From an uncultured Candidatus Saccharibacteria bacterium (GTDB taxonomy: Bacteria > Patescibacteriota > Minisyncoccia > Phycocordibacterales > UBA9973), in the NCBI GenBank assembly GCA_964482735.1, contig CAYZYV010000003.1, positions 1 to 61,096 of the forward strand: 61,096 bases of DNA, in the 5' to 3' direction. Positions 35,234 to 36,386 of the stretch are shown piece after piece; position 1 is the first letter of the stretch, and each line of letters starts with the position of its first letter. The translations under genes and the position numbers were made by a program. Under the pieces are notes generated by a model. That model was not told where the DNA came from and searched no databases. It saw only the letters and a program-made list of their open reading frames with translations.

Positions 35234-35964
35234 CGAAAAAGAGCGAATTTTTATTCGCTCCCTTCACAAAACTTATAAACATCAAATTTGTGGTTTTAAC
35301 AGTTTGAACCGTTGAGGTTAAATAATTTAATTATTTACTGTTTTTAAAAAAAAGAGACAAGACCATGATACACAGTATGTGTATTCACGGCGGCCCGTCA
35401 TAAAAATATGACGAGGAGAAGTTGGGGTTATCGGTGAAGGCCTGAAAAGGTTAATACCGAGAGGACATTTGTCCTTGTAGAGACTAAAAACCAACCTTCT
35501 GAAAAGAAGAATATATAGTCCGATCCCTCTAGTAATAGAGGTTCACTAAAACTTTTAACGCTAAGTTTTAGTGAAATAAAACATAGATGCGTGAGACAGG
35601 TTGGTCTCCTATCTACTGCAGGCGTTGATTCTTGAGAAGATCTGCTCTTAGTACGAGAGGACCGGAGTGGACTGACCTCTGGTGTACGGGCTCTATTGCC
35701 AAATGGACCGCCCGGTAGCTATGTCGGGAACGGATAAGTTCTGAAAGCATCTAAGAACGAAGCCGCCTTCAAGATGAGGAATCGTTTGAGAAACCTAAGA
35801 GATGATTAGGTTGATAGGCACTAGGTGTAAGTAGAGTAATCTATTCAGCCGAGGTGTACTAATCGTTCGATTCCTATTAGGAAATTTGGAAATCATGTTA
35901 CTATAAAAAAGACATTCGACAGTATTCAGTTTTCAGGTATCATCAATTGATAGTTGAATATTTT

Positions 35965-36090
35965 GTGTTGGTGGTTTAACACGGTGGTCCCGCCTTACAG
36001 GCGCAGTACACCTTTCGCATTAAAAGTGCTCAAAGTCTTGCGATTGGGTCCCATCCCAATCTCACCTGTTATTATTCCGAAACACAGAAG
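35965..36090 (+). rRNA. 5' half of an outer, split 5S rRNA-like copy with a ~73-nt insertion
   Basis: GTGTTGGTGGTTTAACACGGTGGTC-[insert]-CACCTGTTATTATTCCGAAACACAGAAG matches the first half of 36134-36244. Confidence 0.75.
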
Positions 36091-36133
36091 CATGTCCCGT
36101 AATAAAATTGAAAATAAAATATTTGAATGTTTA

Positions 36134-36244
36134 GTGTTGGTGATTTAACACGGTGGTCACACCTGTTCTCATTCCGAACACAGAAGTTAAGCTCCGTTGC
36201 GCCGATGATACTCCTTCGGGGGAAAAGTAGGTTGTCGCCAGCAC
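36134..36244 (+). rRNA. rrf: 5S rRNA (intact)
   Basis: CACCTGTTCTCATTCCGAACACAGAAGTTAAG, GCCGATGATACT and AAAGTAGG motifs; helix I GTGTTGGTGAT/GTCGCCAGCAC. Confidence 0.95.
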
Positions 36245-36278
36245 TAAGTATTTAAATTTTTCAATTTTTAATACGGGA

Positions 36279-36336
36279 TTAAGCTCCGTTGCGCCGATGA
36301 TACTCCTTCGGGGGAAAAGTAGGTTGTCGTCAGCAC
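36279..36336 (+). rRNA. 3' half of the outer, split 5S rRNA-like copy
   Basis: TTAAGCTCCG...GTCGTCAGCAC, one mismatch to the intact copy; begins exactly where the 5' half ends. Confidence 0.8.
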
Positions 36337-36345
36337 AAAGTATTT

Positions 36346-36386
36346 AACCAAACAAAAATCCGCCAGTGGCGGATTTTTGTTTGGTT
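36346..36386 (+). terminator. rRNA unit terminator
   Basis: AACCAAACAAAAATCCGCC-AGT-GGCGGATTTTTGTTTGGTT. Confidence 0.88.

Follow-up and report, generated by a model that had tools for sequence, protein, structure and literature searches.

Insertions in 5S rRNA genes are known in the form of expansion segments and their remnants, which have been found in Clostridiales, Halanaerobiales, Thermoanaerobacterales, Alteromonadales and Halobacteriales. They comprise 13–109 nt (108 nt in Halococcus morrhuae; PMC7530397) and do not resemble the 5S core. Copies with and without an expansion coexist, and the patchy spread of the inserts is ascribed to homologous recombination with insert-bearing donors. 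Stepanov and Fox (2021; PMC7812874) proposed such a horizontal spread through recombination and, for inserts at sites that accommodate them poorly, considered decay into a pseudogene or a new role outside the ribosome; their survey left out sequences with 'internal sequence duplication'. Here, we describe a locus in a 61,096-nt stretch of DNA (referred to as the window) from an uncultured Candidatus Saccharibacteria bacterium (assembly GCA_964482735.1, contig CAYZYV010000003.1, positions 1 to 61,096), in which a resident 5S rRNA gene (the outer copy) is split by a unit that carries an intact 5S rRNA gene (the inner copy). In contrast to the known expansions, the 188-nt insert of this nest contains a complete 5S gene that brings its own processing stem, and the host is a single-copy gene of Patescibacteria.

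The intervening sequences (IVSs) in the 23S rRNA genes of Salmonella, Leptospira and Coxiella resemble the nest as stem-forming insertions into an rRNA gene that occur sporadically among close relatives. They are regarded as selfish and horizontally acquired, and their removal by RNase III without re-ligation gives rise to a fragmented, paired rRNA (PMC4990558). IVSs lie in helices 25 and 45, and any cargo is limited to a small open reading frame (ORF), whereas the nest lies in the host 5S and bears a copy of the host gene at its tip. Neither 5S expansion segments nor 23S IVSs include an insert that is a complete copy of the host gene. Since the tip of the IVS-like unit would be a functional copy of the host gene, the interrupted 5S need not survive.

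Many insertions, some of them nested, are also known from 16S as well as 23S rRNA genes of the same group of organisms, the candidate phyla radiation (CPR; Brown et al. 2015 as cited in PMC9297842; Tsurumaki et al. 2024, PMC11270868). Unlike these introns, the nest has neither a match to an intron model nor an endonuclease gene, while the window's own 23S gene contains a group I-like intron at the 2593 site. In the 2024 survey, 0 of 645 CPR 5S genes contained an insertion of ≥100 bp (PMC11270868); CPR 5S genes were explicitly reported as free of insertions because covariance-model searches see the inner copy only. Integrative elements at the 3' parts of tRNA and tmRNA genes likewise bring a replacement of an essential RNA gene and leave a displaced partial direct repeat; in the nest, integrase and cargo are lacking, the whole gene is duplicated and the 5' half is displaced as well. 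Finally, twintrons share the self-similar nesting of a structured RNA (with three levels at most in one of the loci described below), but they are removed by sequential splicing via known catalytic mechanisms, of which the nest, showing no sign of splicing or ligation, gives no indication. Full-text literature searches for nested, split or fragmented bacterial 5S rRNA returned nothing relevant. The nest is a genuine gene architecture that recurs and had not been reported before.

Structure of the nested locus

The resident 5S gene is split at 54/55 (split and insert positions in 5S are given as E. coli-equivalent numbers) by the 188-nt unit, which consists of a 45-nt arm, the intact 5S gene and a 35-nt arm. 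A second insert of 72 nt with three hairpins, termed ins73, resides at 26/27 of the outer copy. There is no ORF inside the nest. Its parts are listed below, where L-numbers are labels of fetched relative loci or contigs (about 115 in total) and MFE stands for the minimum free energy fold.

35953–35966, + strand: outer leader arm (GTTGAATATTTTGT); pairs with the trailer at 36337–36348 according to sequence and MFE; flank identical in the nest-free loci L003, L098 and L107.
35967–35989, + strand: outer 5S segment a (1–26; 5' strands of helix I and helix II); repeats 36136–36158; same as the 5S start in L098 and L107.
35990–36061, + strand: 72-nt structured insert ins73 at 26/27, three hairpins with conserved linkers; homologues confined to 5S loci.
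36062–36090, + strand: outer 5S segment b (27–54; helix III and loop C), ending ...CACAGAAG; repeats 36157–36186.
36091–36135, + strand: left arm of the inner unit, an ordinary 5S leader that starts CATG-TCCCGTA; 32 bp with the right arm.
36136–36243, + strand: inner intact 5S rRNA gene; Rfam RF00001, 70.3 bits, model 1–120; 30 of 32 consensus pairs.
36244–36278, + strand: right arm of the inner unit, ending ...TACGGGA; pairs with the left arm; homologous arms in other loci.
36279–36336, + strand: outer 5S 3' half (55–120; helix II 3' strand, helices IV/V, helix I 3' strand), starting TTAAGC; repeat of the inner 3' half.
36337–36348, + strand: outer trailer arm (AAAGTATTTAAC), from sequence and MFE; trailer same in L003, L098 and L107.
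36345–36387, + strand: operon terminator hairpin (core CCGCCAGTGGCGG, then TTTTTGTTTGG); orthologous terminator in L107/L108 and L110.

As its flanks and first 23 nt are identical to those of the single 5S gene of close relatives, the outer copy is the resident gene. Its 3' half (36279–36336) plus tail forms a direct repeat of 69 nt with 36187–36255 (97% identity), while segment b departs from the inner copy by three substitutions and a 1-nt insertion, which leaves the outer loop C altered. The base T36330 is specific to the outer copy and is present in L001, L002 and L084. The 3' part of the left arm resembles the leaders directly 5' of plain 5S genes in L050, L013, L015 and L044, and homologues of the right arm with an identical junction (...GGG followed directly by TTAAGC) occur in L081/L059, L041, L095, L086 and L092. 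Apart from the terminator 3' of the outer 3' half, nothing in 35850–36450 resembles a terminator.

The inner copy belongs to the 5S family, as it scores 70.3 bits against a gathering score of 38 over the full RF00001 model. The outer pieces in the genomic sequence give no RF00001 match even at E ≤ 10, and an Rfam search of the nest detects the inner 5S only; an nhmmer search with a 5S profile recovers the outer copy merely as fragments (E = 1.5e-12 for the 3' half). Once joined in silico, the outer halves align end to end with a profile built from 60+ relatives at 87.8 bits (inner copy, 106.2 bits), keep 28 of the 32 consensus pairs (29–32 in single-copy references) and thereby match 5S over the full length and can form the consensus helices I–V. 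The arms of the inner unit form 32 bp with −25.7 kcal/mol (z = −8.1 vs shuffled sequences), and the MFE of the 411-nt region 35945–36355 is the nested topology (−132.6 kcal/mol, z = −5.9). The flank stems of the two copies differ by A-T vs T-A (TTTGTG/CACAAA vs TTAGTG/CACTAA), and each of two differences in the outer helix I of the window results in a G-U pair. Given that the insert holds a 95%-identical copy of the core, it is not self-contained and free of core complementarity in the sense of Stepanov and Fox, and inner strands could pair alternatively with outer ones. By eye, the junctions show no bulge-helix-bulge splice motif in sequence or MFE, as a 2 × 3 internal loop is present instead of two 3-nt bulges separated by 4 bp. 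At E ≤ 10, no group I or group II intron model matches 35880–36420, and neither ins73 nor the arms of the inner unit match anything in Rfam.

A sequence-only reading of this DNA had already described a 5S nested within a second, split 5S, and all the elements it named are present at, or within 1–2 nt of, the places it gave. This applies to the intact inner 5S (put at 36134–36244, found with Rfam at 36136–36243), to the hairpin-rich insert of ~73 nt in the outer 5' half, to the long stem of the inner unit and to the outer flank stem with its A-T/T-A difference, which is evident in the sequence. The end-to-end alignment upon joining agrees with its description of the halves as exactly complementary parts of one 5S, and the 28 of 32 pairs and the nested MFE support its proposal that the outer copy is able to fold as a 5S with two inserts, one of them a stem-borne intact 5S.

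Validity of the assembly

Direct repeats of 58–69 nt are prone to errors of short-read assemblers. The entire nest is spanned, however, by the independently assembled JGI contig Ga0116171_10022524 (L084), which over 4581 nt shares 97.0% identity with the window and shows zero differences across 35794–36348 (555 nt). The left junction is also present in the JGI contig L110, and homologous nests occur in L095, L080/L083, L091/L093, L085/L088 and L086. Logan contigs from SRR10083296 and SRR10083293 break within the repeat: they begin exactly 30 nt 5' of the outer-specific T36330, which points to the branch of a k=31 graph expected at the repeated 3' half. Moreover, the junctions GAAG followed by CATGTCCC and ACGGGA followed by TTAAGC are unique, so that joining plain 5S loci together cannot explain them. 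So far as the sequence data reach, the nest is no assembly artefact, the outcome by which the sequence-only reading would have had to be abandoned. An artefact, or a private neutral duplication of this genome, is thus exceedingly improbable.

The zero differences to L084 cannot be used as proof of constraint on the nest, since they are confounded by a divergence that climbs steadily away from the rRNA region. Between the window (35794–40371) and L084, it amounts to 0% up to 36348, 0.9% in p258 (a gene for a 258-aa protein at 36411–37187, immediately 3' of the 5S region), 2.9% for RodA and 6.6% for the PAP2 gene. Such a gradient points to a recent recombination tract that has its centre in the rRNA region.

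Recurrence in distant lineages

Metagenomes were scanned with a pattern composed of a 5S end, 20–50 nt and TTAAGC-N11-GATGATACT. The scan returned 18 contigs with 15 real 5S loci that represent about nine distinct sequences, and three matches (L082, L087 and L090) were discarded as chance matches. Viral contigs gave no match to this '5S end + 3' half' scan. Full nests, i.e. outer 5' part, arm, intact 5S, arm and outer 3' part, are found in at least five divergent lineages of Patescibacteria with three split points, and the search of relatives that the sequence-only reading had proposed thus revealed the same nesting elsewhere:

Window and L084: inner unit at 54/55; ins73 as other outer insert at 26/27.
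L095: inner unit at 54/55 with the same junctions as the window; ins73 at the same site.
L080 (= L083): inner unit at 45/46; 35-nt hairpin at 37/38.
L091 and L093: inner unit at 45/46; 35-nt hairpin at 37/38.
L085 (= L088): inner unit at 42–44; no other outer insert.

The lineages of the other nests are distant from the window, with RodA identities of 56–63% and, for L085, just 74% at the 23S 3' end. Nevertheless, the MFE is the nested topology in all five lineages, the joined outer halves of the other nests score 60–94 bits with 28–32 of 32 pairs, and inner stems of 22–32 bp are retained despite diverged sequence. A three-level nest is found in L086 (= L096 = L097), where the innermost 5S alone is intact and the unit is located at ~7/19. 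Hairpin inserts are confined to outer copies (at 26/27, 37/38, in helix IV and in helix I), and none is present in the inner copy of any locus. In L092 and L094, a hairpin of ~29 nt (CCGCCTTCGCCAAGGC...GGGCAGG) sits in the middle of the 3' strand of the outer helix I; it is absent in L091, a close relative of L094.

A different arrangement occurs in L046 (872–1215; a Nomurabacteria metagenome-assembled genome, MAG), which has no uninterrupted 5S at the locus. Here, positions 1–94 of a resident 5S are followed by ~229 nt and then by the last ~15 nt of the resident 5S. The ~229-nt insert contains half a terminator, ins73 and a 5S that lacks its first 21 nt and carries an inner-type trailer. The sole complete 5S reading is the outer copy, split at 103/104.

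Gain, loss and exchange

Several relatives have the window's outer flanks with a plain single 5S and no nest, namely L003 (p258 92% identical to the window), L098–L102 (91%), L106 (86%), L107/L108 (81%) and L114/L115 (71–72%). In L110 (86%), the outer 5' part, ins73, the left arm and a 5S are directly followed by the outer trailer, which is exactly what a deletion between the nest's two 3' halves would leave. L081/L089/L059, L041 and L010 have only the 5S, the right arm and the 3' half left, with the same junction of ...GGG and TTAAGC and progressive decay. Simple tandem duplication was rejected as the source of this arrangement in L081, as the copies are identical for 72 nt and then diverge. 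From the nest-free relatives, the deletion in L110 and the remnants in L081, L041 and L010, it follows that the nest is both gained and lost and that neither outer half is indispensable.

Exchange is indicated by an incongruence between the window and L110. The two differ by 21–23% in the DNA of p258 and RodA, by 20% with many gaps in the 23S intron and by 9% around the terminator, whereas the spacer is 98.8% identical, with 3 differences in the 72 nt of ins73, 1 in the 29 nt of segment b, a single indel in the left arm and 0 in the 108 nt of the inner 5S. L003 and L098, although nearer to the window in coding DNA than L110, have a different spacer and lack the nest. This pattern fits a recombinational exchange of the block comprising the 23S 3' end and 5S.

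Outer and inner copies of the same nest are 95–96% identical (window, L095, L091), compared to 76–80% between lineages (73–82% across the orthologous copies), which argues for gene conversion. Through gene conversion, an interrupted copy can remain similar to 5S even when no selection acts on it. Compensatory changes were likewise considered as proof of selection on the outer copy and rejected: the double change in helix III of L091 belongs to the inner copy, and the one in the outer helix I of L080 is also present in the intact 5S of L086 and may for this reason predate nesting. Hence, the covariation that the sequence-only reading had asked for among relatives did not materialize in a form assignable to the outer copy after nesting.

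The insert ins73 and the X RNA

The insert ins73 is a module of three hairpins with the conserved linkers GTACACCTTTCGC and GCTCAAGGTCTTGC. RNAalifold predicts 25 pairs, 8 of them with double changes, and at all three positions where the window and L110 differ, pairing is kept or restored. No copy of ins73 or of the arms was found off 5S loci in the 61-kb window or the ~115 fetched loci. In L086 (5825–5901; = L096, L097) and L092 (9356–9429), ins73 occupies helix IV within the outer 3' half and is reversed relative to 5S; a role in the 5S transcript that is confined to the RNA level is hard to square with this. Folding of seven copies on both strands gave similar energies and did not discriminate a strand preference.

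About ten relatives contain a conserved RNA-like gene of ~150 nt with its own terminator, here called X, which lies ~100 nt 3' of 5S (L003, 1251–1401; L064, 759–913; L045, 5142–5297; L042, 516–670; L047, 1158–1314; L048, 1299–1482; also L044, L054, L069 and L038). The X RNA has a 5S-like helix I, a tail shared with 5S and a 3' domain related to ins73; a hairpin upstream can compete for its 5' strand, and no Rfam family is matched. By sequence, X RNA and the window's outer 5' part with ins73 appear to constitute one family of 5S-derived RNAs. In L044 (454–694), a second X-like module is nested in the terminal hairpin of an X RNA, and nesting is therefore not limited to 5S.

Interpretation of the nest

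We favor, with about half of our confidence, an explanation in which the nest is an IVS-like insertion spread by recombination: the inner copy would be the working 5S, freed from its stem, and the outer copy the interrupted resident gene, maintained by gene conversion as a paired shell. In this view, the 23S–5S transcript reads through the whole nest to the single terminator, no other terminator-like site having been found. According to folding, the inner leader, the trailer and inner helix I form a duplex of ~40 bp, which may be cut by a double-strand-specific RNase (RNase III or M5-like) to liberate the inner pre-5S as the ribosomal 5S. The outer halves and the flank stem would close the unit and probably end up as by-products instead of a second ribosomal 5S. 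Between lineages, the insertion could be exchanged as a cassette by homologous recombination in the conserved 23S/5S flanks, while gene conversion would hold it similar to the host copy and deletion between the repeated halves would remove it piecemeal. The inner copy is interpreted as the working one because it is a standard 5S and bears an insert in none of the loci; the outer copies, which collect hairpin inserts and in the window have an altered loop C, show signs of relaxed constraint. As in IVSs, the extra sequence relative to close homologues is associated with a long stem and a sporadic occurrence among relatives.

Several observations weigh against this explanation. In five lineages with three split points, the outer halves are exactly complementary without loss or duplication and retain 28–32 of 32 pairs when joined. 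Direct repeats of ~58 nt (97–100%) should be deleted easily, yet the window and L095 share junctions and the ins73 site while their RodA is only 63% identical. L046 lacks an intact 5S at its locus, so that interrupted copies may work in some lineages. Several insert sites are near positions that were reported to be sterically permissive (PMC7812874), and purifying selection could also explain why ins73, segment b and the left arm have diverged so little between the window and L110.

Both RNAs might be functional, an alternative that is conceivable but doubtful. After removal of the inner 5S, pairing in helix I, helix II and the flank stem would keep the outer pieces together, and these would either serve some ribosomes as a second 5S, split and expanded, or form a 5S-shaped extraribosomal scaffold that displays ins73. 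The near-complete pairing of the exactly complementary halves and the nested MFE in all five lineages are in agreement with this, as are the G-U pairs in the window's outer helix I, the pair-preserving differences in ins73 and the persistence of the nest despite deletion-prone repeats. Moreover, the X RNA of ~10 relatives joins a 5S-like helix I and tail to an ins73-like module, L046 would have no intact 5S unless the split outer copy is used, with 103/104 adjoining the Halococcus site 104.1–105 (PMC7812874, PMC7530397), and the same operon nests stem-borne tRNA genes within a 23S intron. However, L110 manages without the outer 3' half, L081, L041 and L010 without the outer 5' half and close relatives without any nest, which renders both halves dispensable. 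The reversed ins73 in L086/L096/L097 and L092 is a further objection, as are the hairpin inserts that only outer copies carry, one in mid helix I (L092, L094), and the altered outer loop C of the window. The compensatory differences can be assigned to the inner copy (L091) or are shared with an intact 5S (L080, L086), and gene conversion alone could keep the halves 5S-like. Compared to reported permissive (34–37, 52–53) and blocked positions (29–30, 42–43, 57–58), the insert sites are near both kinds; 42–44 (L085) and 26/27 are at or next to positions that were reported as blocked by uL5 or as overlapping the uL18 site (PMC7812874). A more specific version, to which we attach still less weight, would regard the nest as a selected architecture that moves by recombination as a unit from one lineage of Patescibacteria to another and yields from one transcript a normal 5S and a two-piece, 5S-shaped RNA with ins73. 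The two-piece RNA would then be either another 5S species of the ribosome or a particle outside it that is related to X RNA. The sequence-only reading had likewise considered two 5S species from one transcript: the fold is compatible with this idea, but a second working 5S is unsupported and partly contradicted by the nest-free relatives, L110, L081/L059, L041 and L010. Its other suggestion, a relic of self-insertion, comes closer to the IVS-like insertion that we prefer, with the qualification that the unit is not a private accident but recurrent and apparently exchanged between lineages.

Alternatively, the stem-flanked 5S unit could be a true mobile element with an insertion mechanism of its own (by transposition, by retro-insertion of a processed pre-5S or by capture at breaks), with the helix III/loop C region of 5S genes as its target. 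Such an element would account for clean insertions at three or four positions (54/55, 45/46, 42–44 and ~7/19 in L086) without loss of target sequence, for unit boundaries at the base of the processing stem and for unit ends that are homologous across loci (left, C(A/C)TG-CCC.G...; right, ...C.GGG(G/A)). Yet target-site duplications are lacking, no gene for a transposase, integrase, reverse transcriptase or endonuclease is present in or adjoining the unit, arms and ins73 never occur off 5S loci in the material searched, viral contigs give no match and no intron model matches the nest. We therefore consider a mobile element improbable. Among the classical types, a transposon or miniature inverted-repeat transposable element was rejected, as inverted arms are present but target duplication and dispersed copies are not, and so was an integrase-mediated island at an RNA gene, given that the nest contains no ORF and the 5' half is duplicated too.

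Genomic context

The window has a low G+C content of ~0.33. Its 23S rRNA gene (32321–35881) is located downstream of rplJ/rplL and two ORFs without a 16S gene nearby, so that the rRNA genes are unlinked. A ribosomal protein L10 leader of the ordinary type lies 5' of rplJ/rplL (29236–29374; 44.3 vs an Rfam threshold of 44). The order 23S – 5S – p258 – RodA is conserved among relatives, and in 68 of 77 GTDB species-level loci, which were fetched via p258, a 5S match is found upstream of this gene. The MAGs from which p258 homologues originate are labelled Paceibacterota, Nomurabacteria or Moranbacteria, which assigns the bacterium to the Patescibacteria (CPR), Parcubacteria type.

The 23S gene is itself interrupted by an insertion of ~575 nt (35017–35590) at the site equivalent to E. 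coli 2593/2594, with a sub-threshold match to Intron_gpI (35322–35542, 38.3 bits). A 21-bp stem within this insertion (35033–35053 / 35261–35281) encloses two tRNA genes at 35073–35149 (anticodon GCA, by eye) and 35160–35233 (tRNA-Glu UUC). L003, L110 and L041 contain tRNA genes at the same place of the 23S insertion that differ in sequence or number. In L034 (472–499 and 1491–1518), L013 (~970–1000 and ~1950–1980) and L016 (1–36 and 959–1011), the last ~25 nt of 5S and the tail are repeated past gene-containing insertions of ~1 kb between 5S and p258. These repeats of the 5S end resemble the att-like repeats of elements that integrate at the 3' ends of RNA genes.

Significance

Among the rRNAs, 5S is the most size-constrained, and in Paceibacteria its genes form a hotspot where nests, partial duplications and small structured inserts accumulate, a real gene structure that annotation pipelines and surveys miss. 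The nest represents a simple evolutionary system, in which an insertion offsets its own damage with a spare copy of the host gene and needs nothing but recombination to spread and to decay. Of the readings considered, a functional outer RNA, split or expanded, would be the most important. Should the outer RNA prove stable, it would be the first 5S known to be split or nested in its own kind, and ribosome heterogeneity or a 5S-derived non-ribosomal RNA would become testable in organisms in which ribosome biogenesis is poorly known.

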